Positions 7,293-52,214 of a DNA stretch of 64,000 nucleotides are shown here, in pieces. Positions within the stretch are counted from its first letter, which is position 1. Each line of letters opens with the position of its first letter. Position numbers and translations under genes: made by a program. Under the pieces are notes generated by a model that was not told the DNA's origin, did not search any database, and worked only from the letters and a program-made list of their open reading frames with translations. The DNA is from a virus. The DNA lies in IMG/VR virus record IMGVR_UViG_3300037264_005839; one strand, given 5' to 3'.

Positions 7293-8699
7293 ATGAGCTT
7301 CAAGTACATAGTCGAGGCCGTCTCGCCGAATCACTTCGTGCTCCCGAAGACGGGAGACATGCGGTGCCACGTGGACGCGTTCCTGAGCCAGTCGCTCTAC
7401 GAGCAGACGGACGAGGGGCTGTGGCAACAGGCCGTGGACTCTGCCTCGTACGACGGGGTGCTCGGCGTCTACCTGATGCCCGACACGCACCTCGGCTACG
7501 GCATCCCGGTCGGGGGTGTCGTGGTCACCGACAACACGATCATCCAGAGCGGGAGTGGCTACGACATCTCGTGCGGCGTTGTCCAGATGCGCGTGCCGAA
7601 GTTGCACGCCTCGGACGTTGCAGACTGGGACAAGCGCGAGCGGTGGGTCCGTGAGGTCGAGAAGCGCGTCGCTACGGGCCTCGGCAACGACCGACCGGAA
7701 CTCGCCAAGCGGATCAAGCACCGCCAAGTCGAAGATGTGCTCCGATTCGGCGCCAAGGCGCTTGGTGTCTCGGCGGATCTCTGCGAGCGCCAGTACATCG
7801 AGATCCCCGAGGACATCGACCTGACGAAGATCGAGAAGGCGCACGAGAAGTGCATCCACCAGCTCGGAAGTGTCGGAGGAGGCAATCACTTCATCGAGAT
7901 GCAGGTGGACCGTGACGAGGGCTCCGTGTGGGTGATGATCCACTGCGGGTCTCGGGGCTACGGTTGGCAGACCGCGAACCACTTTTTCCACGAAGGGGCT
8001 GCCCTCCGGGGTCTTCCAAAGAACCGACGCGAACAGTCGCACCTCTACGCGGACGAGCCCCTCGGCAAAGAATACTGGGCACATCACAACAGCGCGGCGA
8101 ACTTCGCCGTGGCGAACCGGCACACTATCGTCGAAGGCGTCCAGGAGGCACTCCGAGAGATCTATGGGACGGGGGGCGAGGTCTACTACGAGATCAGCCA
8201 CAACCTCGTGCAGCAGGAGACGCTCGTGCTCCCCGATGGCACGACCAAGAAGGGCTTCGTGCATCGCAAGGGCGCGACGCGTGCCTTCCCGGCCGGACAC
8301 CCGGATCTCCGAGGCACGAAGTGGGAAGGTACGGGCCACCCGTGCCTGATCCCGGGCTCGATGTTGAGCGGGGCCGCGATCTTGTTCCCGAAGGCCGGTG
8401 CCTACGCGTCGGGGTGCTCAGTCAACCACGGGAGCGGTCGCATGCTCGGACGCGCGGCGGCGAAGCGCGAACTCGGCGAGATGCAGGGGGACATCGACGA
8501 CGAGATGCGGACCATCGAGCGTGTGTTCGACGGGGTCCCCATCATAGGCATCGTCGGGAACACCGCGAAGACGCCGCTCGACGAGTGCGGCATGGTCTAC
8601 AAGGATCTCGACGCCGTGCTCGACGTGCTGGTTCAGGAGGGCATCGCCGAGATCGCGCACCGCATGTACCCCGTCGCCAACATTAAAGGAACCGACTGA
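7293..8699 (+). CDS. rtcB: RNA 3'-phosphate/5'-OH ligase RtcB
   Basis: 468 aa; GAGGAAA RBS; blocks GGGNHFIEMQ, HCGSRGYG, SVNHGSGR match RtcB family signatures. Confidence 0.9.
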   Translation: MSFKYIVEAVSPNHFVLPKTGDMRCHVDAFLSQSLYEQTDEGLWQQAVDSASYDGVLGVYLMPDTHLGYGIPVGGVVVTDNTIIQSGSGYDISCGVVQMRVPKLHASDVADWDKRERWVREVEKRVATGLGNDRPELAKRIKHRQVEDVLRFGAKALGVSADLCERQYIEIPEDIDLTKIEKAHEKCIHQLGSVGGGNHFIEMQVDRDEGSVWVMIHCGSRGYGWQTANHFFHEGAALRGLPKNRREQSHLYADEPLGKEYWAHHNSAANFAVANRHTIVEGVQEALREIYGTGGEVYYEISHNLVQQETLVLPDGTTKKGFVHRKGATRAFPAGHPDLRGTKWEGTGHPCLIPGSMLSGAAILFPKAGAYASGCSVNHGSGRMLGRAAAKRELGEMQGDIDDEMRTIERVFDGVPIIGIVGNTAKTPLDECGMVYKDLDAVLDVLVQEGIAEIAHRMYPVANIKGTD

Positions 8700-8747
8700 T
8701 GCCTGAGAAGAACATCCAACCACAGATGACGCAAACGCGTCCTCAAC

Positions 8748-8885
8748 ATCGAGTGGAAGGAGACACAGATCCACGTCCCTCCAGAAATCTTCACCGACGA
8801 AGACGTGACGAAGTGGACGACCGGCATCCACGCGTGGGGAGTGGACAAGGCCATCGAGTACCTGCGGAAGGTCTGGAGCTGCTGA
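8748..8885 (+). CDS. small protein, start unresolved (possible frameshift or non-canonical start)
   Basis: frame with about 89% GC3 (IEWKETQIHVPPEIFTDEDVTKWTTGIHAWGVDKAIEYLRKVWSC) has no ATG/GTG/TTG; the ATG-initiated frame at 8699 is R-rich with low GC3. Confidence 0.3.
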   Translation: MEWKETQIHVPPEIFTDEDVTKWTTGIHAWGVDKAIEYLRKVWSC

Positions 8886-8886
8886 C

Positions 8887-9252
8887 ATGACCTCGATCCC
8901 CGTCATCGACAACAGGTTCATCTGCGTACAGGGCATCGAGATTCCACTGCCCCACTCCAAGGATCCAGAAGGCTTCATCACGCCGGACTGGCATGACATC
9001 ACCGAGTTCTACGGGGCGTGGTGCAACAGGGTGGCTGCGACGGGCCTGGAACCTTGGGCCCCCCAGCCCTTCCTCCTCTCCGTGGCGAAGGAGCTGGAGC
9101 GGCTGGAGGCACGTCCTGGACGCAACGCGGAGATGTGGTTCAAGCGCATGGTTCAGCACTTTGGCCTCGGGTGGCTCAAGGAGCGCATCGAGTTCATGAA
9201 ACGGGATCGCGACGGGCGTCTCGGGCAACTCCAGGAGACAGACGATGGGTGA
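8887..9252 (+). CDS. hypothetical protein
   Basis: 121-aa ORF; high GC3. Confidence 0.55.
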   Translation: MTSIPVIDNRFICVQGIEIPLPHSKDPEGFITPDWHDITEFYGAWCNRVAATGLEPWAPQPFLLSVAKELERLEARPGRNAEMWFKRMVQHFGLGWLKERIEFMKRDRDGRLGQLQETDDG

Positions 9253-9931: not shown

Positions 9932-10639
9932 ATGAGCCGCGTCGAAGAAGACGGGTCGCAGTACCCAGAGGGACCCGTGGATTTGGTGCACGTGGGGCCC
10001 CCAGGAGAGCCTCTCTCCTCGTTCCTGATGCTCTATCACTACGCGGGGGGCATCTTCCCTCTGGGGATGCAACACGAGCGGCATCTGTGGTGGTCCCTTG
10101 AGCCGCGGGCCGTTCTCCAGACGAACCAAGTCAAGGTGAACCGGACACTCCGCAAGGTGATCCGTCGAGGCGACTATGTGGTCCGGGCCGACACGGCCTT
10201 CGATGCCGTCGTGGAACTGTGCCGTCTCACCCGTCAGACGGATGATGGGCCGGGATCGTGGATCACCGACGAGTATGTGCGCGTCTTCAGGACGCTGCAC
10301 AGGCTCGGACACGCCCACAGCATTGAGACTTGGCGGGGGGATCAACTGGCCGGTGGCCTTTTCGGGGTTGCCATGGGCCAAATGTTCTATGGCTGCTCGA
10401 TGTTCCGGCTCCAGCCGAACGCCTCCAAAGTGGCCTTGGTGGCGCTTGCACGGCAGTTGGATGCTTGGGGGTTCCCCCTCGTCGATTGCCAGATCCACAA
10501 TCCTCACTTGGGCCGCATGGGCGCACGCCTCATCCCTCGCATGCGCTTCCACGAGGTCGTGCGGAGCCTTGTACGTGGAAAACGCAGGGTTGGCTCTTGG
10601 GCCGATCAATTCCAAGCGCCGGGCGCCGCATCGTTTTGA
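9932..10639 (+). CDS. aat: leucyl/phenylalanyl-tRNA--protein transferase
   Basis: 235 aa; conserved L/F-transferase blocks WWSLEPRAVL, DTAFDAVVELC, GSWITDEYVRVFRTLHRLGHAHSIETWRGDQLAGGLFGVAMGQMFYGCSMF, DCQIHNPHLGRMGARLIPR. Confidence 0.8.
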   Translation: MSRVEEDGSQYPEGPVDLVHVGPPGEPLSSFLMLYHYAGGIFPLGMQHERHLWWSLEPRAVLQTNQVKVNRTLRKVIRRGDYVVRADTAFDAVVELCRLTRQTDDGPGSWITDEYVRVFRTLHRLGHAHSIETWRGDQLAGGLFGVAMGQMFYGCSMFRLQPNASKVALVALARQLDAWGFPLVDCQIHNPHLGRMGARLIPRMRFHEVVRSLVRGKRRVGSWADQFQAPGAASF

Positions 10640-15318: not shown

Positions 15319-16614
15319 ATGAGTCGGCGACGCGTTGGGACCTTCCAGATGCTGTGGGACTGTTCCTGCGGCACCGGCCCCTTGCTGGGCATCGACCATC
15401 GGCACTGCCCTTCCTGTGGGCGCCCACAGGACCCCCTGCGTCGGTACTTCCCGGATCAGAGGGATGCGGTTCCGGCCCCCGAGTGGGTGGTCGGCAGCGG
15501 TGCTGACCTCTACTGCCCGTACTGCTCCACGGCCAACGTGGCCCAAGCCACCTTCTGTGTGGGTTGTGGGGGACCCATGGACGGCTCCAAGGAGGTCGAG
15601 CGTCGGGAGGCCAACCACGGGACCTCGGCCGAGACGATCCAAGACGCCCTCTCTGAGGCTCGCCAGGAGGCCCAGGAACGGCGCGAGGCCGTGGCAGAGG
15701 CCCAGGCCCCAGACGCGCAGCGGGCCCGGGAGAGGGCTCGTGCAGCCGATCAGGCAACCCCTCGTGAGAGCACGCAGGTGAGGGTGGAATCCCCGCGTAA
15801 ACCCCGCGCTCCGCATCCAAAAATGGCGGCCTTGAGGCGCCACTGGGATCACCTCCGACGACCGGCGATGGTCGGGATGGGGGTGCTCGGTTTGCTGGTG
15901 CTCCTGTGGGCCATCTTCGCGTGGGAGAAGACGATCACCGCCGAGGTTGAGCACCGCTCGTGGGAGCGCTCGCAGGAGATCGAGCGTTTCGTACAACTCT
16001 CTGACTCGTCGTGGTGCGACGACCGACCTGGAGATGCCTACGATGTTGATGAGAGTCGTCGACAACGAGGCACGAGGACAGTCATTGACTGTCGAGACTG
16101 CGACTGCCACACAGAGCAAGTCAAGGTTGGCGAGAACTGTTACGAGGCGAACTGCAGGACCGTCCGCACGGACAATGGCAACGGATCGTTCGACGTGACT
16201 GAAGTGTGCGACCGCAGGTGCGATCCCGTTCACGAAGACCGGCAGATCTGCAAGGACCGGACACACGAAGAGTCCGTCTACGACGAATGGTGCTCGTACA
16301 GGATGGACCGATGGCGACCCCACCGCACGGCCTCGGAAGAGGGCAACTTCTCGCGTGCCCCGGCGTGGCCGGAGCTCGATCTGCGGACGTGCGGCAGGAT
16401 CGAGTTCGGGTGCGAACGACCGGGAGCCAGGAAAGAGAACTACGTCGTCAGTTTCCGCGACGTGCAGGATGACGAGCACTACGAGTGCTCCTACCCGCAG
16501 TCGGCGTGGACTCGATACGAAGAAGGAAGTTTGTGGAAGGCAACGGTGAAGCGTCTCGGTGGCCGCTTCCAATGTGCCTCGCTCGTTGCCATGGCTTCGG
16601 AGACGGAGATCTGA
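15319..16614 (+). CDS. membrane protein with N-terminal zinc ribbons and Cys-rich extracytoplasmic domain
   Basis: CPSCG, CPYCS, CVGCG, then TM segment VGMGVLGLLVLLWAIFAW, then many Cys; TATAAG 7 nt upstream of ATG (leaderless-type). Confidence 0.6.
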   Translation: MSRRRVGTFQMLWDCSCGTGPLLGIDHRHCPSCGRPQDPLRRYFPDQRDAVPAPEWVVGSGADLYCPYCSTANVAQATFCVGCGGPMDGSKEVERREANHGTSAETIQDALSEARQEAQERREAVAEAQAPDAQRARERARAADQATPRESTQVRVESPRKPRAPHPKMAALRRHWDHLRRPAMVGMGVLGLLVLLWAIFAWEKTITAEVEHRSWERSQEIERFVQLSDSSWCDDRPGDAYDVDESRRQRGTRTVIDCRDCDCHTEQVKVGENCYEANCRTVRTDNGNGSFDVTEVCDRRCDPVHEDRQICKDRTHEESVYDEWCSYRMDRWRPHRTASEEGNFSRAPAWPELDLRTCGRIEFGCERPGARKENYVVSFRDVQDDEHYECSYPQSAWTRYEEGSLWKATVKRLGGRFQCASLVAMASETEI

Positions 16615-16633
16615 TCATGGGAGAGAACGGAAG

Positions 16634-17500
16634 ATGACCGACAAGACCTCACTTGGGGACAGGATGAAACACTACGAGGAGGTGTCCTGCACCATCCTCA
16701 CGCCTCGCATGCCGATGATCATCCGCATCGACGGACGTGCCTTCCACACGTACACGAAGAAACTGCATCACGGGATGCGGGAAGAGTCTCCGTGGAATCC
16801 CGTGATGCGCGATGCGATGACGGCTGCCGCCCGCGGTCTCATGCGTGAGATCAGCGGGGCCAAGATTGCATACCTCCAGTCTGACGAGATCAGCGTCCTC
16901 GTCACCGACTACGACAAACTGTCTTCGCAGGCTTGGTTCGACAAGGCCGCGCAGAAGGTGTGCTCGGTGGGGGCGTCCATCGCTACGATGGAGTTCAACA
17001 ACAACATCCGCGACTACATCGACTCCGGGCTCCCCGCCGAGATGTTCCCGACGACTGCGACGTTCGACGCGCGCGTCTTCGTGGTGCCGAGGGAGGATGT
17101 CTGCAACTATTTCATCTGGCGGCAGCGGGATGCAGAGAAGAACTCGATCTCGATGCTGGCGCAGACGCATTTCTCCCCCAAGCAGCTCCATGGCAAGGAC
17201 GGCAACGCAAAGCAGGACATGTTGATGCTCGAGAAGGGCGTCAACTGGAACGACCTGCCGACGTGGCAGAAACGCGGGTGGTGCGTGGACCGCAAGACGA
17301 TCACCATGACCGTGGCCGAACTCGAGATGGCGGGCGGCAAAGTGACACGGAATCCCGGCGTTGTGCTCGACCCGAACACCGAGGTCACACGCACCGTGGT
17401 TGAACCTGACTGGGAGATCCCGATCTTCACGAAGGACCGCGGCTACATCGATCAGTTCGTGAACGTGGACGAGGCGCCCTTGAAGGGGGAGGAGCCCTGA
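16634..17500 (+). CDS. Thg1-like protein (tRNA-His guanylyltransferase family 3'-5' polymerase)
   Basis: RMKHYE, RIDGRAFH, QSDEISV, FDARVF, NYFIWRQRDAEKNSI, WQKRGWC blocks. Confidence 0.8.
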   Translation: MTDKTSLGDRMKHYEEVSCTILTPRMPMIIRIDGRAFHTYTKKLHHGMREESPWNPVMRDAMTAAARGLMREISGAKIAYLQSDEISVLVTDYDKLSSQAWFDKAAQKVCSVGASIATMEFNNNIRDYIDSGLPAEMFPTTATFDARVFVVPREDVCNYFIWRQRDAEKNSISMLAQTHFSPKQLHGKDGNAKQDMLMLEKGVNWNDLPTWQKRGWCVDRKTITMTVAELEMAGGKVTRNPGVVLDPNTEVTRTVVEPDWEIPIFTKDRGYIDQFVNVDEAPLKGEEP

Positions 17501-18252
17501 TGCGCTTGGTCATCACCAGCGACACGCATGGTTTCCATCGCGGATGGGGCGTCTACGACAAGGCGATGCCTGAGGGGGACGTCCTCGTCCATGCGGGAGA
17601 CTTCTCTCGAGACCATGGCTCGTGGCAGGACGTGGTGCGCTTCGCCGCGTGGATGGAGAAGCAGCCACACCGGCACAAAATCCTGTGCCCCGGCAACCAC
17701 GATGTGGGGATCCACGAGAACCGGAACAAAGCGGCGCTGCTGTTCACGGCGCACGGAATTCATCTCCTCGGCATCCAGACCGACCGCGTCGAGATCGACG
17801 GGATCACCTTCGCAGGAGCTCCTTGGATGCCAATCAGTGGATGGGTTCCCCCTTGGGGGTTCGAGACGCCCGATTACGAGCGAGAGAGGCTGTGGGCTCG
17901 GGTAGAACCCTCGGATGTCCTCGTGACCCACTCGCCTCCCATGGGAATCCTCGATCAGACGGCCAAAGGCGAGCACATCGGGTGCCCACTGCTCCAGCGC
18001 CACGTCCTCGGGCGCCTCCGTCCACGTCTCCACATCTTTGGACACGTCCACGAAGCGCGAGGCATCCACGAGGAAGAGGGCATCGTCTTCATGAACGCCT
18101 GCTCTAACACACGGGGCACTTTTGTCCGCGACGACATCAAGGGGATCACGCACATGACCATGGGCATCCACGACCCGATGGTCTACAACCTTGAGCGTGA
18201 TCCTACCGGCCCTGCAGAAGTTGCCTATGGAGATCATAAGGTTGAGAGGTGA
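17500..18252 (+). CDS. calcineurin-like metallophosphoesterase
   Basis: TGATG overlap; ITSDTHG, HAGDFS, CPGNHD, THSPP, GHVHE motifs. Confidence 0.8.
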   Translation: MRLVITSDTHGFHRGWGVYDKAMPEGDVLVHAGDFSRDHGSWQDVVRFAAWMEKQPHRHKILCPGNHDVGIHENRNKAALLFTAHGIHLLGIQTDRVEIDGITFAGAPWMPISGWVPPWGFETPDYERERLWARVEPSDVLVTHSPPMGILDQTAKGEHIGCPLLQRHVLGRLRPRLHIFGHVHEARGIHEEEGIVFMNACSNTRGTFVRDDIKGITHMTMGIHDPMVYNLERDPTGPAEVAYGDHKVER

Positions 18253-18265
18253 GCGAGCAGGGGAC

Positions 18266-18766
18266 GTGAACACGCCGTACGGACAGTTGGAGGCACTCCT
18301 CCAGAATCTTCGGGAATGCGGCCTGACGGTCGCGTTCGCTGAATCCTGCACGGGAGGGCGCCTCTGCGCAGATCTGACGACCGTGCCGGGATCTTCTGAT
18401 GTCGTGGTTGGATCTGCTGTGTGCTACCAACTGGCAGCGAAACGGAAGGTGTTGGGTCTTGAGGATGTGGACGAGCAGAATGTGGTGTCGGGTCAGACGG
18501 CGCTGGCGATGGCGACAGCTACACGTCGCCTCTTCGGGGCGGACTTCGGTGTCGCGACGACGGGCTATCTGAGTCCGCATGAATCCAACGGACAAGCGTG
18601 GGAACCCGCCGCCTACTGGGCGATAGCAGGACCCCAGGTGGAACGGTGGGACGGCGTGGAGCTCTCGTCACACATGCCTCGAGACTTGAACCGCGAACTT
18701 GTCGTACGCGCCACGATGCAGGCATTGGTAACGGCTGTTTCTCGAGAGAAGAGGAGCCCGGCATGA
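18266..18766 (+). CDS. CinA C-terminal domain / NMN amidohydrolase PncC-like
   Basis: TVAFAESCTGGRLCADLTTVPGSSDVVVGSAVCYQLAAKRKVLGL; GTG start after AGGGGAC. Confidence 0.75.
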   Translation: MNTPYGQLEALLQNLRECGLTVAFAESCTGGRLCADLTTVPGSSDVVVGSAVCYQLAAKRKVLGLEDVDEQNVVSGQTALAMATATRRLFGADFGVATTGYLSPHESNGQAWEPAAYWAIAGPQVERWDGVELSSHMPRDLNRELVVRATMQALVTAVSREKRSPA

Positions 18767-19044
18767 CCCATGAGCAGCACATCGCCGTCCTGAAGCGGTA
18801 CGCCGAGAAGTTCACGAAGTGGTCAAGCGAGTGCTGTCCCGGCAACTTCGACCAGCCTCCAGGGGTGGGACGCGCGGTGAAACATATCAACTGGATGATC
18901 CACGAAATGCTGCACCGTCTGGAAGCCCACGAGGATCGTCCAGGACAAGCTGACCGTTGGATAGGGTTCATCCAAGGCGTCCTCTGGAACAACGGCTTTT
19001 TCACGATCGACGATATGAAGGCTCACAACACCGAGCCCGCGTAG
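18763..19044 (+). CDS. hypothetical protein
   Basis: ATGA overlap; 93 aa. Confidence 0.5.
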   Translation: MTHEQHIAVLKRYAEKFTKWSSECCPGNFDQPPGVGRAVKHINWMIHEMLHRLEAHEDRPGQADRWIGFIQGVLWNNGFFTIDDMKAHNTEPA

Positions 19045-19052
19045 GAGCACCC

Positions 19053-19493
19053 ATGGACCTCAAGTACGACCCTGCACGCCACGCCGTCTGCTGTCTCCTG
19101 ATGAATCAGGACGGGGACATACTTGCAATCTCTCGCCTCAAGGTAGGCCCTGCGGACCAGCCGGTCGCCGACCACGACCGATGGGGAATGCCGGGCGGCA
19201 AGGTCGAGAGCAACGAGTCTCTCGACGTGGCCGTCGTGCGAGAGACCTACGAAGAAACCGGCTTCGTCATCGCAGCTCCTCAGTCCGTCTACACCGCGTT
19301 CGTTCCTGGCGAGAGCAACTTCATCTGCACGACCTTCGTGGCGCACATCGTGGCACAGGCCCCGGATGCACCTCGCAGCGTGCCCTTTGAGGGTGACGTC
19401 GCCTGGGTGTCTCCCGCCGTCCTCGCCGCGGGGCCCTTCGCGGAATACAACCAGGCGTTGTTTGAACATCTCAACATCCGGTGGCATGAGTGA
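19053..19493 (+). CDS. NUDIX hydrolase
   Basis: Nudix box GGKVESNESLDVAVVRETYEETGF. Confidence 0.8.
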   Translation: MDLKYDPARHAVCCLLMNQDGDILAISRLKVGPADQPVADHDRWGMPGGKVESNESLDVAVVRETYEETGFVIAAPQSVYTAFVPGESNFICTTFVAHIVAQAPDAPRSVPFEGDVAWVSPAVLAAGPFAEYNQALFEHLNIRWHE

Positions 19494-20142
19494 GACTCAC
19501 CTGTTGGTGGCGCACACAATGAACAATCCATTCGACGAGCTTCACGAACAGGAGCGGCACTGGACTCTGAGCGACGAGGGGATCGAGATCACCTACGATG
19601 CGGATTTTCTCGTAGACGTTGACGCTGACCGTCAGTTCGCAGCCCTCAAGACAGAGATCCCGTGGCGCCGCTTCCAGATGTCAACGCCAGACGGACCACG
19701 TGCGGTGCCAAGGATGATCTCGTGGCATGCAGACGCAGATCTCAGCTACAAGTACGGCGTCGTCACTCACGCGTGGCAGGCTTGGACTCCGACTTTACTG
19801 GAAGTGCGGGGTCTTCTTGAGGCAAAGCTCGGGATCTATTTCAACGGGGTCCTCGCCAACCTCTACGAGAATGAGCGTGACTCGGTGTCTCCCCATGCGG
19901 ACGACGAGCGTGACATGGTCGACGGAGCAGCCATCGCCTCGGTGAGTTTTGGGGCCACCCGGGAGTTCGTCGTCCGGCACATGACCAACCGAAATCGCTA
20001 CGCCACCCACCTTGAACACGGATCCCTCTTGGTGATGAGCGGAGACACCCAGAGGGTCAGCCGGCACTCTGTGCCGAAGGCCAAGCGGGCGTGTGGCCCG
20101 AGGATCAATCTGACTTATCGCATCGCGCGAGGCAGCGGTTGA
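19486..20142 (+). CDS. alkB: AlkB-like Fe(II)/2-oxoglutarate dioxygenase
   Basis: HADDE..(HxD), VSFGATREFVVRH, GSLLVMSGDTQRVSRHSV(P) match the AlkB core. Confidence 0.8.
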   Translation: MSETHLLVAHTMNNPFDELHEQERHWTLSDEGIEITYDADFLVDVDADRQFAALKTEIPWRRFQMSTPDGPRAVPRMISWHADADLSYKYGVVTHAWQAWTPTLLEVRGLLEAKLGIYFNGVLANLYENERDSVSPHADDERDMVDGAAIASVSFGATREFVVRHMTNRNRYATHLEHGSLLVMSGDTQRVSRHSVPKAKRACGPRINLTYRIARGSG

Positions 20143-20203
20143 CGCGGACGCTTCTCCATGGATTCGACGAAACCCTTCGATTACCCAAGTAGGATCACCG
20201 ACG

Positions 20204-20458
20204 ATGTCTTGCTCCCCTTTGCTCAACGGTGTCTCGGACCCGCTCAAGGTGCTCAAAATCGTGTGGGAACACCGGATCTTGTGCTGGTCCGAGCCTCCAA
20301 ACACGTTCCGTCCGCTCGAGCAACTCGGGTGGGTCGTATACCGTGAGGGGGCATGGCGTATAACGGATGAGGGGAAAAAAGCTGCACTCGCAGCGGTGGC
20401 TGAGACTGTCGAAGTTGAGGACACCCCCACATCCATCGCGGAGTTCTTCGGACTATGA
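20204..20458 (+). CDS. hypothetical protein (winged-helix-like?)
   Basis: 84-aa ORF with good GC3; the alternative 20158..20346 is R-rich. Confidence 0.45.
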   Translation: MSCSPLLNGVSDPLKVLKIVWEHRILCWSEPPNTFRPLEQLGWVVYREGAWRITDEGKKAALAAVAETVEVEDTPTSIAEFFGL

Positions 20459-20784
20459 CCCCCGCAGCACAAGCTCTCCAAGAGTGGTGGGACCATATGG
20501 CTACCATGTTTGCACGCTATGGCGATGCGGAGGGGATCGAGCAGACCCCAGAGTGGTCCGAGCATCAGACACTACAGAACACCCTCCTCGTCGAGCTGCG
20601 ACGAGAGACCGTGTCGCCTGAGGAACTCCTCATGGACGTGCTTCAAGTGTCGATCCTAGCCACACTGGGTTCCGAGCCTACGCGGATGTCCCCAGATACG
20701 GCCGAATTGATTGTATCCGACACGAAGCGTCGGACCGCGGAGCACGAAGCGCGAAGGATCACGTCCGTAAATCTGATGAACTGA
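20455..20784 (+). CDS. hypothetical protein
   Basis: ATGA overlap; 109 aa. Confidence 0.5.
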   Translation: MTPAAQALQEWWDHMATMFARYGDAEGIEQTPEWSEHQTLQNTLLVELRRETVSPEELLMDVLQVSILATLGSEPTRMSPDTAELIVSDTKRRTAEHEARRITSVNLMN

Positions 20785-20794
20785 GGAGGGTACG

Positions 20795-21163
20795 ATGAGG
20801 AAGATGGAAGCGGTACTTGAGAAGATCCTTGCCCCCGGCATCCTCGCCGTGTACGGACGCAAGGGAGACAACGAGACTCTCCTATTCACCACGCACGGAC
20901 TCCCGTTGCCGCAGGAGGCGAAGGACCAGTGGCACAGCACATTGAAGGGGACCTGTCTTCTTCTCGCCACCGCGAACCGCTCGGGGTGTGGTGTTGACGA
21001 GGTCCGCGTCATGTTGGGGTACCACACGGTTCTCGTCCAACAGTGCGACGGAGTGCTCATCGGCGTCGTTTTCGTCAAAGGGAATGGGGTCGTCAAGTCA
21101 TTGGCCCGGATGGTGCGCAGAACCTTCAAGGTCTTCGGCAAAACACCAAACGTTGAGGTGTGA
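20795..21163 (+). CDS. hypothetical protein (roadblock/LC7-like?)
   Basis: GAGGAGGG RBS; 122 aa. Confidence 0.5.
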   Translation: MRKMEAVLEKILAPGILAVYGRKGDNETLLFTTHGLPLPQEAKDQWHSTLKGTCLLLATANRSGCGVDEVRVMLGYHTVLVQQCDGVLIGVVFVKGNGVVKSLARMVRRTFKVFGKTPNVEV

Positions 21164-21166
21164 GCC

Positions 21167-21862
21167 ATGGGTCTGCACGTGAAGAATGAGATTGTCGATC
21201 CCGAGGAGGATGGCGTCGCGCGAGGGATCCAGACAACTCTGAGTCGAGAAATCCGCCTCGGGGATCAGTTCCGCACCGTGGCAGCCGCCGCCATCGCCTA
21301 TTCACGCGATGAGAAGTGGGGTTACGTGGCAGCCGTAGTACTGAGCGCCACAAATTGGAGTGTTGTGTTCCGACAGCTTCTCAAGATGCCGGTCACCCGT
21401 CCGTACGAGCCAGACCTCCTCGGTTTTCGCGAGGGACCTCTTCTCCTCGAGGCACTTGTGCGGCTTCCCCGAGAACCGGATCTGATCTTGATCGATGGCT
21501 CCGGCATCGCACACCCACGCAAGTTTGGCCTCGCGTGCCACGTTGGCCTTGCGCTTGAGCACCCGACGGTGGGGATCACCAAGTACTGGCCCCTCGGATG
21601 CAAACAGGCGAAGTGCACGGTGGCGCGGAGGCGGGGTTCCAAGACGGCGCTACTGCACGAGACAAGCGGCGACCGCCTGGGCTACGAGGTCTACATGCAA
21701 GACAACACCGATCCCGTCTATGTGAGCCCTGGGCATCGCGTGTCACTCGATGATGCGGTCAGCGTCGCCCTTCGGTGTACTCCTTGGCATCGCTTGTCCG
21801 AGCCGATCCGAGCCGCCGAGAACGCCGCCAACGAACATCGTCTTGAGCAGGAGAAGACATGA
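21167..21862 (+). CDS. nfi: endonuclease V (deoxyinosine 3' endonuclease)
   Basis: ILIDGSGIAHPRKFGLACHVGLALEHPTVGITK and the YVSPGH block. Confidence 0.85.
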   Translation: MGLHVKNEIVDPEEDGVARGIQTTLSREIRLGDQFRTVAAAAIAYSRDEKWGYVAAVVLSATNWSVVFRQLLKMPVTRPYEPDLLGFREGPLLLEALVRLPREPDLILIDGSGIAHPRKFGLACHVGLALEHPTVGITKYWPLGCKQAKCTVARRRGSKTALLHETSGDRLGYEVYMQDNTDPVYVSPGHRVSLDDAVSVALRCTPWHRLSEPIRAAENAANEHRLEQEKT

Positions 21863-22137
21863 TCGTTGTCAAGATCGAAATGTGGCCCAAGGGAGATGCG
21901 TCGCGGGCGAGAGATCTTGGTCGCATGTTCATCTACAACGCCGGAGGCACTGACGAACGCGGCGACTACGAGGTCCGCGTGTGTCGGAAGGGGAACTTCA
22001 ACCCGGGGGTCGCGGCGATTCAGACGGGCGACGGCTTCACTCGAACCGGGCGCGTCGAGAACTACCCACGTCTGGCATACAACATTTGGCGCCTAGTCCT
22101 CCGGGGGCTCCGCTCCGCGTTCCCCGAGGAAGGCTGA
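21859..22137 (+). CDS. hypothetical protein
   Basis: ATGA overlap; 92 aa. Confidence 0.5.
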   Translation: MIVVKIEMWPKGDASRARDLGRMFIYNAGGTDERGDYEVRVCRKGNFNPGVAAIQTGDGFTRTGRVENYPRLAYNIWRLVLRGLRSAFPEEG

Positions 22138-22140
22138 CGG

Positions 22141-22761
22141 ATGGCTATCGTACTTCCAGGAAAGTTCATCTTCTTGGCAACGCCGTACACGGCGTCGATG
22201 GCGGTTGCACGAGCTCTCAAGACGCTGCCTGGTGTTTTCGTAGCCTATGACAAGCGACACGGGATCGGGCATCACGCGCGTCTTGACCAAATCAAGCAGG
22301 TAGCACAGCAACGTCTGACAGGGACCGAGCAGGTGATCGTGGCTGTACGGAACCCCTACGACGTGTTCGTCTCTTGGTATCTTCGCAACCTGAATCATCT
22401 CCAAGTGCTCCACTTGGTCAAGGTGAAGGGACTCCAGCGCGATCCGAATCTCCGGGAGTTCATCGAACTGTGGGCCGACCTTGACATGCCGCCCTACGTC
22501 TCCAAGGGCCGCATCTTCTACCACGCGGAAGATGGTGGCCATGCGGTGACGCGGAAAATCGTCCGCTACGAGGATCTCGAGAACAGCCTCAACGCCGCGC
22601 TGAGAGCATGCAAGGTGCCTCATGTCAAGGTGGGTCGAGAGAATGAGACACCGGACAAGGATCACTGGTCCTCGTACTACGACGAGGACACCTATGCCTT
22701 CGTGAACGAACGCTTCCGCGATGACTTCGTGAAATTCGGATACCCCTTCCTTTGGAAATGA
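22141..22761 (+). CDS. hypothetical protein (sulfotransferase-like fold?)
   Basis: 206 aa; N-terminal FIFLATPYTAS loop-like segment. Confidence 0.45.
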   Translation: MAIVLPGKFIFLATPYTASMAVARALKTLPGVFVAYDKRHGIGHHARLDQIKQVAQQRLTGTEQVIVAVRNPYDVFVSWYLRNLNHLQVLHLVKVKGLQRDPNLREFIELWADLDMPPYVSKGRIFYHAEDGGHAVTRKIVRYEDLENSLNAALRACKVPHVKVGRENETPDKDHWSSYYDEDTYAFVNERFRDDFVKFGYPFLWK

Positions 22762-23483
22762 GCCGTGGCGTAGAAGGGGGGATGTCCCCCGGACCCCGGC
22801 CCGTTCCCGTCGACCAAGGAGAGATCTCCGCCGGGCCCGTGCTCGACGCCTTGGTCGGCCCGGTTCCCGCAGGGTCGGTTGTCGTCGTGACCGGAACGTC
22901 GGGGACAGGAGTCACCACCTTTCTCCGCCACGTGGCCACGCAAATTGGGCAGCACCGACCGGTGTGGTTTGTGTCCAACAGCACCGAACCACCTCGACCG
23001 ATCGGTCCTCCTGCCGATATCGTGTGGATGCACAAAACGTCTTTGACTGACCTGGCCATGCTGACGAAAAGGTCTTTCGTTGCGACCGTCTGGATCGTCG
23101 ACGACGGCGACCAGATGCTTGCAGGGGACGGCGCCCTGGCCTCGAAGGGATGGGCGTCGTTGCTTCCACGCCTTCAAGCTAATGGTGTGACGCTGTTCCT
23201 CGGGATGAAACAACGTCGAGGACCCGACAGACGCCTGCCCCACGCCATCCCTTTCATGGCGACGCTCGGGCTTGAACTCGACGTCGTCGTGCGCACGCAA
23301 GGAAACGACTCCGTGACGGGAGTCGTCGCGGACGTGAAGCTGTGGAAGTCCAAACTTGGGCCAGCCCAGAGCACCGCAGGCCGCGTCTGGATACGGCCTC
23401 TCCACGAACCATCAGTTCGTCTCGAGGCAGGGCGAGATCCCATGCGTCTCTCCTCCCCAGAGATTGAGGGGTTCCTTGGCTGA
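22758..23483 (+). CDS. RecA-fold P-loop-like protein with degenerate Walker A (no Lys)
   Basis: VVVVTGTSGTGVTTF; Walker-B-like VWIVDDGD; ATGA overlap (alternative ATG 22782 right after GCGTAGAAGGGGGG). Confidence 0.45.
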   Translation: MSRGVEGGMSPGPRPVPVDQGEISAGPVLDALVGPVPAGSVVVVTGTSGTGVTTFLRHVATQIGQHRPVWFVSNSTEPPRPIGPPADIVWMHKTSLTDLAMLTKRSFVATVWIVDDGDQMLAGDGALASKGWASLLPRLQANGVTLFLGMKQRRGPDRRLPHAIPFMATLGLELDVVVRTQGNDSVTGVVADVKLWKSKLGPAQSTAGRVWIRPLHEPSVRLEAGRDPMRLSSPEIEGFLG

Positions 23484-23499
23484 GAACCGCAGGCAGAGC

Positions 23500-23823
23500 A
23501 TGGCGAAGAAGGAGGAGCGCGCGGTGGCTCTGCTCCGCCAGAAACACACGGCCGCGTCCGTGGCCAACCACCGATCGGTGCAGGTGCATCCGACGACAGT
23601 CCAAAGATGGGCGCGTAAGCACGGGATCCTCCTCACGTACCCCTACAACCGCCACGAGGGCCGCAAAGACCTTGTGGATGTGGACGAGATCCTGCGGTTG
23701 CGCAGGCGACAGATCGACGGGAAGTGTATCTTCACGCTCGGCGATATTGCCGACCTGTGTGAGTGCTCCTTGAGCTACGTCAAGCAGGTCTGCGCGAAGG
23801 CACGACGAGAAGGAAAGCTATGA
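23500..23823 (+). CDS. HTH DNA-binding protein
   Basis: VQVHPTTVQRWARKHGI helix-turn-helix; 107 aa. Confidence 0.5.
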   Translation: MAKKEERAVALLRQKHTAASVANHRSVQVHPTTVQRWARKHGILLTYPYNRHEGRKDLVDVDEILRLRRRQIDGKCIFTLGDIADLCECSLSYVKQVCAKARREGKL

Positions 23824-24059
23824 CGAAGATACCCTTCACGGCCGACCAAGTCGAGTCGATCAACAGCTACCAACGAGCCGGGATCTTTCACCCGTTCACC
23901 TGCGGAAATGATGGCGAGACGCTTGAGGCGACGCCCGAGGGCATGCGATGTCCCAAGTGCAGCTACGCGCAGGACTGGGTTCACGACTTCATGGCGAACT
24001 GGACATGGAGGCCACCCGAAGACTGGCCGTCCGCGCCGCCCGAAGAACCCGAGAAGTAG
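23820..24059 (+). CDS. hypothetical small Cys protein
   Basis: ATGA overlap; FTCGNDGE...CPKCSY. Confidence 0.5.
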   Translation: MTKIPFTADQVESINSYQRAGIFHPFTCGNDGETLEATPEGMRCPKCSYAQDWVHDFMANWTWRPPEDWPSAPPEEPEK

Positions 24060-25013
24060 ATGGAGGAGCCGATCAATGCCATGGGTTTATGTGCCGGGAT
24101 TGGAGGGATCGAGCTCGGGCTCCGAGCTGCCATGCCCCGATGCCGAGCGGTGGTGTACGTGGAGAGGGAAGCCTTTTCGGCCGCAGTCCTGGCTGCGCGA
24201 ATGGAAGAAGGGCGGCTACCTCCGGCGCCTATCTGGAATGACCTTGAGTCCTTCGACGCTCGAGCGTGGCGTGGAGCAGTGGATCTCGTCACTGGTGGGT
24301 TCCCTTGCCAGCCCTGGAGCGCGGCCGGGAAACGATCCAAAACTGACGACGAACGCTGGCTCTGGCCGCTCGTCGCCCGGATCATTTGCGACGCGCGACC
24401 CCGCCGAGCCGTCTTCTTGGAGAACGTCCCAGGCCTGGCAAACGGAGGCATCCACCACGTTCTCTGGGACTTGGCCGAAGCGGGGTTCGATGTTGAGTGG
24501 GGCGTGTATCGAGCTCTCGACGTCGGGGCAAATCATCGACGACCCAGGATCTTCATCCTCGCCTACCGATCCGACGAGCTTGATGGCCTTCTTCGAGCAA
24601 CATTCGGGGACGGAGGAGGACGACGAGGGTCCGGCGAACGAGTTCTACCCGAACGTATGGCCCACGGCCGTCACGACGGACGCCCCAGGAGCGGCGAGGC
24701 ACACGACGACAACGGGCATCATGAACACGGGCACAATGCTCACGGACGCGATGCGGATCTTCCTGGCGGAGATCCAGGTCAACCTGGACCCGGATTCCCG
24801 CCACCTCCATGCTCTGAAGAACGATGGCGACGATACCTTGATGCAGGCGGTCCTCTCCCCGCTGTTCGTCGAGGCGCTGATGGGATACCCGACCGGATGG
24901 ACCGACTGCGCGCCCTCGGGAATGCGGTCGTCCCCCGAGTGATCGCCGTGGCGTGGCGAGATCTCCTCCGGCAAGCCATCTCCACGCGGGAGGGATCGGG
25001 ATGCTCTTTTTGA
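24060..25013 (+). CDS. DNA (cytosine-5)-methyltransferase
   Basis: motif I LCAGIGG, motif IV GFPCQPWS, ENV (FLENVPGL), motif X GNAVVPRV. Confidence 0.85.
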   Translation: MEEPINAMGLCAGIGGIELGLRAAMPRCRAVVYVEREAFSAAVLAARMEEGRLPPAPIWNDLESFDARAWRGAVDLVTGGFPCQPWSAAGKRSKTDDERWLWPLVARIICDARPRRAVFLENVPGLANGGIHHVLWDLAEAGFDVEWGVYRALDVGANHRRPRIFILAYRSDELDGLLRATFGDGGGRRGSGERVLPERMAHGRHDGRPRSGEAHDDNGHHEHGHNAHGRDADLPGGDPGQPGPGFPPPPCSEERWRRYLDAGGPLPAVRRGADGIPDRMDRLRALGNAVVPRVIAVAWRDLLRQAISTREGSGCSF

Positions 25014-27420: not shown

Positions 27421-27993
27421 ATGGACTTCCTCGCTTGGCACAACGTGCTGTTCCTCTCCTCGACCGGCATCGGCATCTTGATTGCCATCAGCGCTGCCCT
27501 CGGAGCCGCAGACCTCGACGACCCGGACTTTGACGAGGGAGGTGGCTCAGAGGGTCCTCGACATGGGATCCTGAGTTTCCTCGATCTCGGTCATATCCCC
27601 TTCACCGTTCTCCTCCTGGTCTCGAGCCTCACGTTCGGGATCACCGGCGTGGCCGGGAGTTTAACGGCCGCGAAATTGCTCGGCAGTGACGGGCCCTGGA
27701 TGGGCGTCGTGCTGGTGGTGATCGCCTTCGCCGTCATGATCTTTCTGACCGGACGCCTCGCGCGACTGATCATCAAACACGTGCCTGCTTCCGAGACGCA
27801 TGTAGCGAGCCCGGTCGACGTTGTTGGGCACGAAGGGGTGATGTTCACGTTCTCGTTCGCCGACGTGTGCATCGGAGCAGACGTGCACAGGATCTCGTGC
27901 AGGAGCGAGAGCACCCTCGCTCCCGGAGCGCGCGTTCACGTGCTCAGCTACGACGACGACACCAAGACCTACGAAGTCACTCCGCTCAACTGA
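27421..27993 (+). CDS. NfeD-like membrane protein
   Basis: three TM segments plus a C-terminal beta-barrel-like tail; immediately upstream of the flotillin gene. Confidence 0.6.
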   Translation: MDFLAWHNVLFLSSTGIGILIAISAALGAADLDDPDFDEGGGSEGPRHGILSFLDLGHIPFTVLLLVSSLTFGITGVAGSLTAAKLLGSDGPWMGVVLVVIAFAVMIFLTGRLARLIIKHVPASETHVASPVDVVGHEGVMFTFSFADVCIGADVHRISCRSESTLAPGARVHVLSYDDDTKTYEVTPLN

Positions 27994-28017
27994 GCCTCAC
28001 CAGGAACATACAGACAA

Positions 28018-29856
28018 ATGGCACTCACACTCCTCTTCATCGTTGGGTTGCTGCTTTTGGCAGCCCCCATTCTCCTGCCAATCTTTGGCATCAACATCCC
28101 CCTCTCCGCCACCTTCGCCATGCTCGGTGTGGGCGGCTCTCTGGTCGGCCTCATCGGCCTCCTGTGGATCTTCAAGAAGCTGTACGTCAAGACGCGCGCC
28201 GACTTGGCGTTCGTGCGCACGGGACGAGGGTTCAAGATCATCAAGGATGGGGGCAGCATCGTGATCCCGTTCCTGCACGAGATCATCTGGGTCTCGCTGC
28301 GTACTTTCGAGGTGAAGGTGGAGCGCCGAGACAAGGATGCTCTCCTGACGAAGGACAAACTGCGGGCAAACATCGCCGCCGAGTTCTACGTGAAGGTCAA
28401 GCCGGACGACGACGCCATCGGAGCGGCGAGCCGTTCTTTCGGTGAGGAGATGAACGCACATGGCATCCTCCGCATCGTCGAGAAAAAGTTGATCAGCAAC
28501 CTGCGCACCGTTGCCGCGCAGAAGACTCTTGAGGAGCTGAACTCGGACCGCGCAGCTTTCATGGAGCAGGTGACCCACCTCTGCGCGCAGGATCTGATCC
28601 ACAACGGCCTCACACTGGAGTCGGCGGCCATCTCGTCGCTGGACCAGACGAGCAGTGAACACCTGGACCCGAAGAATGTCTTCGACGCCCAAGGCCTCAG
28701 GACCATCGCCGACATCACGGAGGCGAACATGACCCACACAAACAAGCTCCAACGCAACGGCGAGGAGGCGCGCAAGCGCCAAGACGTCGAAACGCGCAAG
28801 GCCATGCTCTCGCTCGAGCAGGAGCGGGAAAAGGCCGAGGCCGAGCAGATAGCCGAGATCAAGCGCATCAAGGCTGAACAGGGGCGACTGGCCCGCGAGA
28901 AGGAGATCGAGGCTACGAAGGCGGTCGAGCTCGCAGAGGTTGAGAAGCACGAGCGTATCGAGGTTGCCAAGAAGGCACAGGAGCAGGCTGTCGAGGTCGC
29001 CGCGCAGGCGAAGGAGCAAGCCGTCGAGGTTGCCACCAGGGCCAAGGAAGCCGCCATCTCCACGGCCGAGAAGGAGCGCGCCGAGAAACAGGCCGAGCAG
29101 GCCGACGCCGAGCGACTGCGTCAGGAGAAGACGGAGGCAATCAAGACCGTCACCATGGTGCAGGAGGCCGAGCGCAAGAAGCAGCAGGCGATCATCGAAG
29201 CGCAGGCTGAGGCCGAGCGCAAGCTGATCTCCGCGCAGAAAGGTGCCGACGCCGAGGCGTACAAGGTGGAGAAAGACGCCGCGGCCCGGAAGGCGGCTGC
29301 TGATGCCGACGCTGAGGCCACGCGCAAGAAGGCCGAGGCGGACAAAGACGCCGAAATCGCCCGCGCAGAGGGCGAGAAGGCGAGGGCCATGGTGCCTATT
29401 GAGGTCAAGAAGGCCGAGCTCGCCATCGAAAAAAGCCGGATCGAGGAGGTCGTCAAGCCGGAACTCGAGGCTCGCGATGCTCACGGCCAGTCGGCGCAGG
29501 AGTTTGAGCTGGCGAAGCTGTATATCGAGGAGCACGCCAAGGTGGAGATCGAGCGCGCGAAGGCCAGCGTCGAGATCTACCGCAAGGTCGAGGTGCAGGC
29601 TTTCACCACGCTCGAGCAGATGGCTGCCGTGCAGCAGCAAGTCGTCCGGGGTCACGGGCTCGCCGGCATGATCAATGGATTTCGCGAGAATCTCGACGTT
29701 GACTCGGCATCTGAGGCAGTCGGAGCCATCAAGAGCATCATCGAAGCTATTCGCGGGTCGCAGCCCAAGTCGGGATCGAACGGAGCACCTGAACCCAAAA
29801 CGGTCGCTCCGAGCGTTTCTCCAGCACCCGCCGCGAAGCCGACGCCCGCAGGCTGA
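28018..29856 (+). CDS. flotillin-like SPFH/band-7 protein
   Basis: N-terminal TM, SPFH core, long E/A/K-rich coiled coil (YqiK/FloT architecture). Confidence 0.8.
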   Translation: MALTLLFIVGLLLLAAPILLPIFGINIPLSATFAMLGVGGSLVGLIGLLWIFKKLYVKTRADLAFVRTGRGFKIIKDGGSIVIPFLHEIIWVSLRTFEVKVERRDKDALLTKDKLRANIAAEFYVKVKPDDDAIGAASRSFGEEMNAHGILRIVEKKLISNLRTVAAQKTLEELNSDRAAFMEQVTHLCAQDLIHNGLTLESAAISSLDQTSSEHLDPKNVFDAQGLRTIADITEANMTHTNKLQRNGEEARKRQDVETRKAMLSLEQEREKAEAEQIAEIKRIKAEQGRLAREKEIEATKAVELAEVEKHERIEVAKKAQEQAVEVAAQAKEQAVEVATRAKEAAISTAEKERAEKQAEQADAERLRQEKTEAIKTVTMVQEAERKKQQAIIEAQAEAERKLISAQKGADAEAYKVEKDAAARKAAADADAEATRKKAEADKDAEIARAEGEKARAMVPIEVKKAELAIEKSRIEEVVKPELEARDAHGQSAQEFELAKLYIEEHAKVEIERAKASVEIYRKVEVQAFTTLEQMAAVQQQVVRGHGLAGMINGFRENLDVDSASEAVGAIKSIIEAIRGSQPKSGSNGAPEPKTVAPSVSPAPAAKPTPAG

Positions 29857-33237: not shown

Positions 33238-33699
33238 ATGGCATTCACTGAACAGCAGGCACTTGAGAAGGCCGTGTTGGTCGCTGCGATGTCGCCATGC
33301 GCCAAGAGCAAGCGCGGGGTGGTCATCTTCCACCGGCGCCAGGGGATCGTTGCGACCGGGTTCAACCATCCGCCCCACCCTTTCAAGTGCGACGGATCGG
33401 AAGAATGCCGCACCAACTGCAACAAGGTCTGCGTTCACGCTGAGACGGCGGCCCTTCACGACCTCAGACTTCAACTCGTGCGACTGCACCCGAACACCCT
33501 TGAGATGCTGCACGTCAAAGCCGTCGACGGTACGGCCGTAGCGAGCGGTCCTCCTTCGTGCTGGCAGTGCTCGCGCGAGATCCTCGAGGCGCGCATCTCC
33601 GCCTTCTGGCTACTGCATGCCGAGGGGTTGCGCCGTTACACGGCCGAGGAGTTTCACACTCTAACCATGCAGCAATGCGGGCTGCCGGTGATCCGATGA
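33238..33699 (+). CDS. dCMP/cytidine-deaminase-fold zinc enzyme
   Basis: VHAETAAL ... PCWQC (H-x-E ... PC-x2-C zinc site). Confidence 0.7.
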   Translation: MAFTEQQALEKAVLVAAMSPCAKSKRGVVIFHRRQGIVATGFNHPPHPFKCDGSEECRTNCNKVCVHAETAALHDLRLQLVRLHPNTLEMLHVKAVDGTAVASGPPSCWQCSREILEARISAFWLLHAEGLRRYTAEEFHTLTMQQCGLPVIR

Positions 33700-35510: not shown

Positions 35511-35620
35511 AGTTGTACCGCGGAAGCAGTCGCGAGCACGGACGTTACTCCTCCTATCGTTTGGCGGAGGAAGCGAAACAGATCCAACGAGTCATTCGTG
35601 AAACTCTGGTGGGTAGAAGG

Positions 35621-36037
35621 ATGGAGATGTACCGAGCCGTTTGCGGATTCTATTTCTCTGAGGACCGAGAACGCGTCGTCCTGATCAGGAAGATGAGACC
35701 CTCGTGGCAGTTCGAGCTTCTCAACGGCGTGGGTGGGAAAGTCGAGGAAAACGAGTTCGCCAAGGACGCGATGGTCCGTGAGTTCGAGGAAGAGACGGGC
35801 GTCCACGTTGAGAACTGGATCCCATTCTGTGTCCACGAGGACTTATCGCACGGGGTGCACGTCACCTACTACCGGGCCTTCGGGGACGTGAGTGGCTGCC
35901 GTACGACCACGGACGAGAAGATCAGCGTCGAGTTCGTGGCACACTTGGTCCAGCTAGAGACGATCCAGAATTTGAGATGGATCGTGCCCATGGCACTGGA
36001 CCCGACGCTTCAAGAAGCGCACACTGTCTGGCGATGA
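35621..36037 (+). CDS. NUDIX hydrolase
   Basis: GGKVEENEFAKDAMVREFEEETGV; ATG directly after GGGTAGAAGG. Confidence 0.7.
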   Translation: MEMYRAVCGFYFSEDRERVVLIRKMRPSWQFELLNGVGGKVEENEFAKDAMVREFEEETGVHVENWIPFCVHEDLSHGVHVTYYRAFGDVSGCRTTTDEKISVEFVAHLVQLETIQNLRWIVPMALDPTLQEAHTVWR

Positions 36038-49206: not shown

Positions 49207-49436
49207 GAAATCTCTGGTTCCTTCCACCCGGACTGGCTGCGGATCTCGATAATTTGTTCCCACGAGAGCTTCTCAGGGTTGAGCGCCTCGTCGGGATCTA
49301 TCCACCCCTGACGCCGGGCATACCCCGTCGAGAAGACGGCTCGCGCCATCCCGATGCGCTGGACCTCGGCCGCCTCGTCCTCAGATCCGAGGTGAACGAA
49401 GACGCCCTTGCCGAAGGGGTTTTTGATGGTTGCCAT
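49203..49436 (-). CDS. hypothetical small protein
   Basis: ATG preceded by GGGGGTATAACGCTGGAGGC. Confidence 0.45.
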   Translation of the reverse strand: MATIKNPFGKGVFVHLGSEDEAAEVQRIGMARAVFSTGYARRQGWIDPDEALNPEKLSWEQIIEIRSQSGWKEPEIS

Positions 49437-50231: not shown

Positions 50232-50265
50232 GCCTCCATTCTACTCCACGTGGTACGGTGGGAAG

Positions 50266-52213: not shown

Positions 52214-52214
52214 G

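Follow-up and report, generated by a model that had tools for sequence, protein, structure and literature searches.

The 64,000-nucleotide stretch of viral DNA analysed here (IMG/VR virus record IMGVR_UViG_3300037264_005839; hereafter "the window") encodes an endonuclease V (EndoV)-like protein downstream of an AlkB-family dioxygenase. An earlier note, made from the letters of the sequence, had regarded the two as a pair of damage-reversal enzymes carried together. According to our analysis, the AlkB half of this proposal is correct and ordinary, while the EndoV-like half belongs to a phage-restricted EndoV clade in which the nuclease centre has been lost recurrently, and this is the novelty. 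In the window copy, the first catalytic aspartate (Asp43 in the numbering of Thermotoga maritima EndoV) is lost, the base-recognition pocket is conserved, and the protein has remained under purifying selection. From this combination we infer binding without cutting; with about even confidence, the protein is read as a lesion-binding pseudo-nuclease and not as a typical repair nuclease.

Membership of the protein in the EndoV family is strong by both domain and fold. It matches PF04493 with 175 bits (cut-off 23.4; E 1.8e-51), and its AlphaFold2 model has a pLDDT (predicted local distance difference test) of 93, with the top 35 PDB matches in Foldseek all being EndoV (template modelling (TM) scores 0.68-0.81). 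No PHROGs family was matched. Both NCBIfam equivalog cut-offs are missed—with 161 vs. 230 for deoxyribonuclease V (NF008629) and 144 vs. 300 for endonuclease V (NF041102).

The metal-binding active site of T. maritima EndoV is composed of D43, E89, D110 and H214; among 36 mutants of this enzyme, D43A, D43C and D43H were the sole three without inosine-dependent cleavage, even with Mn2+ (PMC3025561). In the window protein, Ala42 (VAAAAIAY) sits at the position of this aspartate (VAGVDLSF) in every alignment, comprising pairwise HMMER alignments to 3GOC, 4XPU, 2W35 and 2W36 (EndoV of Streptomyces avermitilis, Escherichia coli and T. maritima) as well as MAFFT columns. The E. coli equivalent of D43 is taken to be D35. 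The two entries 2W36 and 2W35 share the PDB title "Structures of endonuclease V with DNA"; the former, the DNA-bound D43A form of the T. maritima enzyme, is matched slightly better by the window protein (96.4 bits) than the wild-type 2W35 (94.0 bits). Ala42 is not a read error, because the identical protein sequence was found in two independent assemblies.

Around this substitution, the equivalents of E89, D110 and K139, which are metal or phosphate ligands, are present, and H214 is replaced by Glu; T. maritima EndoV is still active as H214D or H214E (PMC3025561). The strand-separating wedge reads PYEPD, not PYIPG, with Y80 and P82 kept, I81 replaced by Glu and G83 by Asp. The base-pocket motif DG.G.AHPR.FG.A.H.G ... 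G is intact; the residues of the deaminated-base pocket and of DNA-binding motifs III/IV are all present, comprising G111, G113, A115, H116, P117, R118, G121, H125 and G136, of which H116 is required in the T. maritima enzyme for binding to inosine-containing DNA (PMC3025561). Thus, of the earlier description as a "typical" Nfi endonuclease V at 21167-21862, the domain and the coordinates stand; "typical" does not, in view of Ala42, the PYEPD wedge and the NCBIfam scores, and of the catalytic Asp/Glu residues on which the earlier note had made its call depend, the first Asp is absent. No acidic residue near the site was found that is new and specific to members lacking D43; the acidic residues just downstream of Ala42 (YSRDE) also occur in D43-retaining relatives (YSLDDE, YSRDD) and, thus, do not represent a compensating novelty. 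Given the loss of D43, the window protein is predicted not to incise the second phosphodiester bond 3' of inosine.

In a homologue search, the protein falls into a discrete clade (P0001-P0046; 524-206 bits), with all other EndoVs scoring 153 bits or less. The clade comprises ~46 cluster representatives, all of them from metagenomic contigs, several of which are 44-110 kb in size. Nfi-type EndoVs are essentially unknown in phages; tblastn against 50,697 deposited phage records revealed no genuine phage EndoV homologue. The only matches were three host-nfi-like Salmonella sequences of ~32% identity, located on two chromosomal contigs annotated as deoxyribonuclease V and on one 10-kb unannotated "phage" record. 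IMG/VR contains one contig of the clade as well as four giant viral contigs, unrelated to it, that encode a canonical EndoV. A contig scan of species genomes gave no close relative of the protein and, hence, no clue to a host or prophage, and a literature search for naturally occurring EndoVs without catalytic activity, or for Nfi-type EndoVs from phages, was negative. A second small and more degenerate EndoV-like group (P0048, P0050) carries Ala at D43, Glu at Y80, Gln at D110 and Leu at K139, with the AHPR motif replaced by ADAS or ADPS.

The recurrence of the loss becomes evident from column counts (T. maritima numbering) within the clade and in a comparison set of 72 other EndoVs. D43 is kept in 30/45 clade members vs. 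68/72 other EndoVs, K139 in 29/46 vs. 70/72, and Y80 in 36/46 vs. 70/72; position 81 is Glu in 35/46 clade members and Val or Ile in 69/72 other EndoVs. By contrast with these catalytic and wedge positions, the pocket residues G111, G113, A115, H116, P117, R118, G121 and G136 are invariant (46/46), and position 125 is His in 45/46. The 15 members without D43 are, on average, 52% identical in pairwise comparison; none of them deviates at any of the 11 pocket-motif positions, whereas only 2 still have K139, 6 have Y80 and 8 have D110. The D43-less sequences are scattered over at least about five places in a neighbour-joining tree, in which P0002 (Ser42, Y80S, R88G) is the partner of the window protein, inside a group that otherwise retains Asp.

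Ten distinct related loci carrying the EndoV-like gene (L-numbered) were available for comparison, and purifying selection was found to persist after the loss of D43. The ratio of nonsynonymous to synonymous substitution rates (dN/dS) is 0.073 for L010 vs. L011 (both D43A and K139E; dS ~1.0), 0.086 for the window vs. its closest relative, L007 (A42 vs. S42), and 0.14-0.16 in two D43-retaining pairs. Taken together, a conserved recognition surface, catalytic and wedge residues that can be dispensed with, and continued constraint are what is usually seen when an enzyme fold has been put to use as a binder. The same data bear on the view that the gene is a decaying, functionless remnant in the window phage. 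The missing key catalytic residue, the repeated catalytic losses in the clade, and the damaged AlkB active site of L005—an indication that accessory genes of this region can degenerate—would fit decay, but the open reading frame (ORF) is full-length, its predicted fold is confident, and neither the constraint in the two D43-less pairs nor the fully conserved pocket of the 15 D43-less members agrees with it; we consider this view extremely unlikely.

Alternatively, the EndoV-like protein might still nick at inosine or deaminated bases despite Ala42, with a compensating residue or a water-mediated metal in place of the carboxylate, and together with AlkB repair phage nucleic acids that the host has damaged by alkylation or deamination, both proteins thus being active damage-reversal enzymes. 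The family membership, the retained E89, D110 and K139 equivalents, the retention of D43 in most of the clade, and the strong purifying selection would all be expected from an active enzyme, as would the repair-type RNA/nucleotide gene surroundings (RtcB, Thg1, metallophosphoesterase, NUDIX). We nevertheless hold this to be unlikely, given that each of the three substitutions at D43 abolished cleavage in the model enzyme, that the closest relative, with Ser at this position, has lost Y80 and R88 as well, and that no new acidic residue accompanies the loss. Furthermore, across lineages the loss of D43 is accompanied by losses of K139, Y80 and D110, which is the pattern expected once catalysis is no longer selected.

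Several points weigh against the pseudo-nuclease reading. Active sites of the RNase H-like type are occasionally rebuilt, and a carboxylate may lie spatially near the lost Asp43 site. A full catalytic set is found in two thirds of the clade, so that cleavage is probably the ancestral and commonest function to this day; a role in binding alone would, in addition, have to pay off at the same genomic position. In the window, the protein has lost D43 only, with K139, D110 and E89 kept, and the loss may thus be evolutionarily recent. Moreover, the neighbour-joining tree is rough and carries no support values, and the dN/dS values are approximate since dS, at 1-2, is near saturation. Finally, the Asp at G83 and the Glu at I81 adjoin the pocket, whose actual ligand may be something other than hypoxanthine.

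As a pseudo-nuclease, the EndoV-like protein would dock, in DNA or RNA, on sites of the hypoxanthine type (deaminated purines) or on comparable distortions without incising them. It could occupy lesion sites and thereby keep host EndoV or other nucleases off; alternatively, it might present such sites to a partner protein. In a more far-reaching version, to which we attach a low probability, this phage EndoV lineage would repeatedly have become a pseudo-nuclease recognising hypoxanthine or a related base in the service of counter-defence. Two routes are conceivable: sites in phage DNA/RNA that are deaminated, or at which inosine has been substituted on purpose, might be shielded from host EndoV and other nucleases, or immune-generated inosine nucleotides (the deoxyinosine triphosphate (dITP) signal of Kongming, RADAR-type deamination) might be soaked up.

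A separate proposal confines the protein to free hypoxanthine nucleotides, as a sponge that counters host immune systems employing or generating inosine triphosphate (ITP) or dITP. This would explain an invariant base pocket along with dispensable wedge and catalytic residues, which are needed for work on duplex DNA; nucleotide-directed enzymes are encoded nearby, relatives carry an Acb5-family gene, and dITP is the immune messenger of the bacterial Kongming system, which phages counteract (bioRxiv 10.1101/2024.12.20.629578). However, binding of mononucleotides by EndoV is without precedent, and the flanking-phosphate contacts R88 and R118 are still conserved, which better fits a polymer ligand; the sponge is thus very improbable.

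The AlkB protein is of the expected kind. It matches PF13532 (97.9 bits, cut-off 31.2; E 1.2e-27) and the PHROGs family phrog_21963, "alkylated DNA repair" (E 2e-31), and its nearest solved structures are human ALKBH2 and ALKBH3 (E 5e-28); with 21.4 bits against a cut-off of 267, it is not of the E. coli AlkB equivalog type (NCBIfam NF011930). The domain previously placed at 19486-20142 on the + strand is thus real; its start, however, is set at 19519 (MNNPFDEL...) on the basis of homologue N-termini (MNPF...) and the public gene call, and the ATG at 19486, 33 nucleotides earlier, is probably too early. In an alignment of the window protein with ALKBH2 and five syntenic homologues, the Fe(II) triad HxD...H is present as H126, D128 and H183 (numbered from 19519), corresponding to HRDDE and YHS of human ALKBH2, and the 2-oxoglutarate (2OG) arginines (RxNxTxR) R195 and R201 in PRINLTYR align with PRVNLTFR. 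The Fe/2OG ligands, whose absence was named in the earlier note as evidence against AlkB, are, hence, all in place. The dN/dS is 0.15 for the window/L007 pair. With its complete site, the protein is predicted to be catalytically active, and most likely it would strip lesions of the 1-methyladenine/3-methylcytosine type oxidatively from single-stranded DNA or RNA.

A C5-cytosine DNA methyltransferase is encoded 2 kb downstream of the EndoV-like gene (window 24060-25013; TIGR00675, E 9e-24; PCQ and ENV motifs). That AlkB might offset 3-methylcytosine by-products of the phage's own C5-cytosine methyltransferase is unsupported as a general reason for its presence, because the called genes of L007 include no DNA-methylase Pfam family (L007 was not searched with this methyltransferase sequence). 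In L005, which carries P0036, a 4-residue deletion in AlkB (8477-9085) removes the Asp of HxD (HA----EV), and the first 2OG arginine is changed from R to C; the EndoV-like protein of this locus keeps all catalytic residues, which is the reciprocal of the situation in the window.

The AlkB and EndoV-like genes are co-located, separated, as noted earlier, by exactly three small ORFs (s84, s109, s122). They belong to an array, NUDIX-AlkB-s84-s109-s122-EndoV-like-p92-p206, which, according to tblastn, recurs with small variations in L002, L003/L004, L007, L010 and L012, and in reduced form in L005, L009 and L011; NUDIX is syntenic in L002, L003, L005, L007, L010 and L012. AlkB lies upstream of the EndoV-like gene in 9/10 distinct related loci; in L008, it is missing and a TnpB/IS605 gene is found upstream instead. 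Where a canonical EndoV is encoded on unrelated viral contigs (four, L013-L016), no AlkB was found within 4 kb and, thus, no convergent linkage. "Carried together" therefore holds within the phage family, where the adjacency follows from membership of both genes in a syntenic array. Given this array-wide synteny and the lack of AlkB near canonical EndoV in unrelated contigs, the adjacency is no proof of functional coupling, and a direct AlkB/EndoV-like partnership is unproven. In relatives, the array further contains an Acb5-family gene (PF26761), a gene with a NADAR domain and insertions of the TnpB/IS605 type (L002 4981-5292; L003 5142-5426; L005 7136-7666 and 11042-12145; L008 8780-9991), which suggests that it is a variable island for counter-defence and repair.

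Tighter and more persistent neighbours of the EndoV-like gene than AlkB are p92 and p206. The former is directly downstream in 7/10 related loci, has a confident predicted fold (pLDDT 92.9) and, with a dN/dS of 0.07-0.11 (0.11 for window/L007), is as conserved as the EndoV-like protein. The latter, downstream of p92 in 8/10 related loci with 45-78% identity (tblastn), matches PF03567 marginally (23.5 bits, cut-off 22) and phrog_3347 (E 8e-7), and may be sulfotransferase- or P-loop-like. This raises the possibility of a module with p92, p206 and/or s122 in which the EndoV-like protein, as the recognition subunit, locates a certain base or structure and a partner does the chemistry, which would explain why the nuclease site can decay. 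Contiguity of the three genes in 7/10 loci—including L008 and L009, which lack most of the upstream genes—and the overlap of the EndoV-like stop with the p92 start, together with the conservation and fold of p92, are compatible with such a module; we rate it as decidedly doubtful.

Among the three small ORFs, s84 and s109 have no Pfam, PHROG or NCBIfam match; homologues of s84 with 50-58% identity were found in 9 loci (tblastn), and s109 is present in L002, L003, L007, L010, L011 and L012. A homologue search with s122 returned the protein itself only, while six loci have a homologue at the same position, with invariant V94, K101, S102, L103 and R105 in a C-terminal VK...KSL.R motif. When these six syntenic homologues were compared with Pfam at E<=5, no shared family emerged; a Roadblock/LC7-like fold, considered for s122, was dropped for lack of support.

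The coordinates of the gene row (Table 1) follow public gene calls for a contig identical to the window. RtcB and Thg1, to which the earlier note had also drawn attention, are both present.

Table 1. Genes and sites around the AlkB and EndoV-like genes; positions refer to the window unless a locus is named.
Feature	Position	Strand	Evidence
RtcB RNA ligase	7293-8699	+	PF01139, 287 bits, E 4e-85
Thg1-like 3'-5' nucleotidyltransferase	16634-17500	+	PF04446
Metallophosphoesterase	17500-18252	+	gene call
CinA/PncC-like	18266-18766	+	gene call
93-residue ORF between CinA/PncC-like and NUDIX	L001 7597-7878		gene call
NUDIX hydrolase, first gene of the conserved array	19053-19493	+	PF00293, E 7e-15; gene call
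AlkB-family Fe(II)/2-oxoglutarate dioxygenase, ALKBH2/3-like	19519-20142	+	PF13532
s84, conserved small ORF, 84 residues	20204-20458	+	
s109, conserved small ORF, 109 residues	20455-20784	+	
s122, small ORF directly upstream of the EndoV-like gene, 122 residues	20795-21163	+	
EndoV-fold protein of phage-specific clade, without catalytic Asp, predicted non-cleaving	21167-21862	+	PF04493
Codon GCC, Ala42 of the EndoV-like protein at the T. maritima Asp43 position	21290-21292	+	
p92	21859-22137	+	phrog_8231; start overlaps EndoV-like stop (ATGA)
p206, weak sulfotransferase-fold match	22141-22761	+	PF03567, phrog_3347

The window is probably derived from an uncultivated phage genome of ~66 kb. It has a G+C content of ~61%, and the genes of the region, a long accessory block, are tightly packed and all on the + strand. 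The signs of a phage are indirect: a virion structural protein was matched in PHROGs at 3452-4699, one member of the clade is in IMG/VR, several neighbours of the AlkB and EndoV-like genes match PHROG families, and the contigs of relatives (66-110 kb) carry genes for ribonucleotide reductase, clamp-loader-like, UvrD and sigma-factor proteins. Since neither Pfam nor PHROGs revealed a terminase, portal or capsid gene in the window, phage origin is probable, not proven. Megablast of window 16500-24000 against deposited phages gave no match. Within the window, there are no tRNA genes, promoter-like sites are not in excess, and terminator-like sites (10 vs. 5.7+/-2.4 expected) are not convincingly above background.

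Outside the array, the window contains a number of further genes. A full-length translation initiation factor IF-3 is encoded at 53029-53550 (-) (PF05198 IF3_N, E 2e-29; PF00707 IF3_C, E 3e-32) and, near RtcB, a leucyl/phenylalanyl-tRNA-protein transferase (Aat; 9932-10639; PF03588, E 2e-60), which is unusual in phages. Four genes related to nucleotides or nicotinamide adenine dinucleotide (33558-34838, 35513-36037, 48349-49263 (-) and 50185-50796) comprise a nucleoside 2-deoxyribosyltransferase-like and NUDIX fusion, a third NUDIX, a Sir2-family protein and an HD-domain protein. There are two cellular-type membrane-associated pairs, i.e., LemA with a TPM-domain phosphatase (51566-53006) and a YqiJ-like with an SPFH/Band 7 protein (27421-29856), as well as an ORF of 2074 residues (56953-63177, -) with good coding statistics and no Pfam/PHROG match.

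With regard to significance, recurrent nuclease loss around a frozen pocket points to the EndoV fold as a possible reader, not cutter, of hypoxanthine-type bases. Inosine and hypoxanthine have recently surfaced in phage-host conflict, in the form of deoxyinosine (dI)-containing genomes and EndoV inhibitors, dITP signalling and deaminase-based systems, and this makes the EndoV-like protein a well-defined candidate that can be studied cheaply in this setting and could also serve as a natural inosine-binding reagent. A binder or counter-defence role would be notable if true; if the protein simply cuts, it is a rare but ordinary repair gene beside an ordinary phage AlkB.

In comparison with known systems, the window protein is closest to bacterial EndoV (Nfi; T. 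maritima TM1865, E. coli Nfi, S. avermitilis SAV1684), with which it shares PF04493 at 30-36% identity, the fold (Foldseek TM 0.73-0.81 to 3GOC, 4XPU and 3HD0), the pocket motif and the E89, D110 and K139 equivalents. It differs in the D43 to Ala change, the PYEPD wedge, the H214 to Glu replacement, its separate clade, and its sub-cut-off NCBIfam scores. The substitution is the same, at the same position, as in the D43A form of T. maritima EndoV (2W36), which binds lesions but does not cleave; however, the latter is a laboratory construct, whereas the change in the clade is natural, recurrent, under purifying selection and accompanied by wedge changes.

For AlkB, the same domain with all Fe(II)/2OG ligands is found in human ALKBH2/ALKBH3 and in phage AlkBs (phrog_21963; e.g., Caulobacter phage CcrColossus and Xanthomonas phage XacN1). 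AlkB is annotated in 20 deposited phage records, mostly genomes of at least 200 kb, and phage AlkB genes have been discussed in a jumbo-phage survey (PMC7824862). These annotated proteins are 27-40% identical to the window AlkB, which differs in its setting, i.e., a phage of only ~66 kb and the vicinity of an EndoV-like gene.

A possible functional analogue of the EndoV-like protein is known from the Fletcherviruses, which replace deoxyguanosine by dI and encode gp119, an ArdA-like protein blocking host EndoV incision at deoxyinosine (PMC13091555). Like the Kongming literature, this provides context, not proof, for a binder role. As a DNA mimic, gp119 attaches to the enzyme and not to the lesion, and its fold and mechanism are unrelated to those of the EndoV-like protein. 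A non-cleaving EndoV on the same sites would, nevertheless, give the same outcome.

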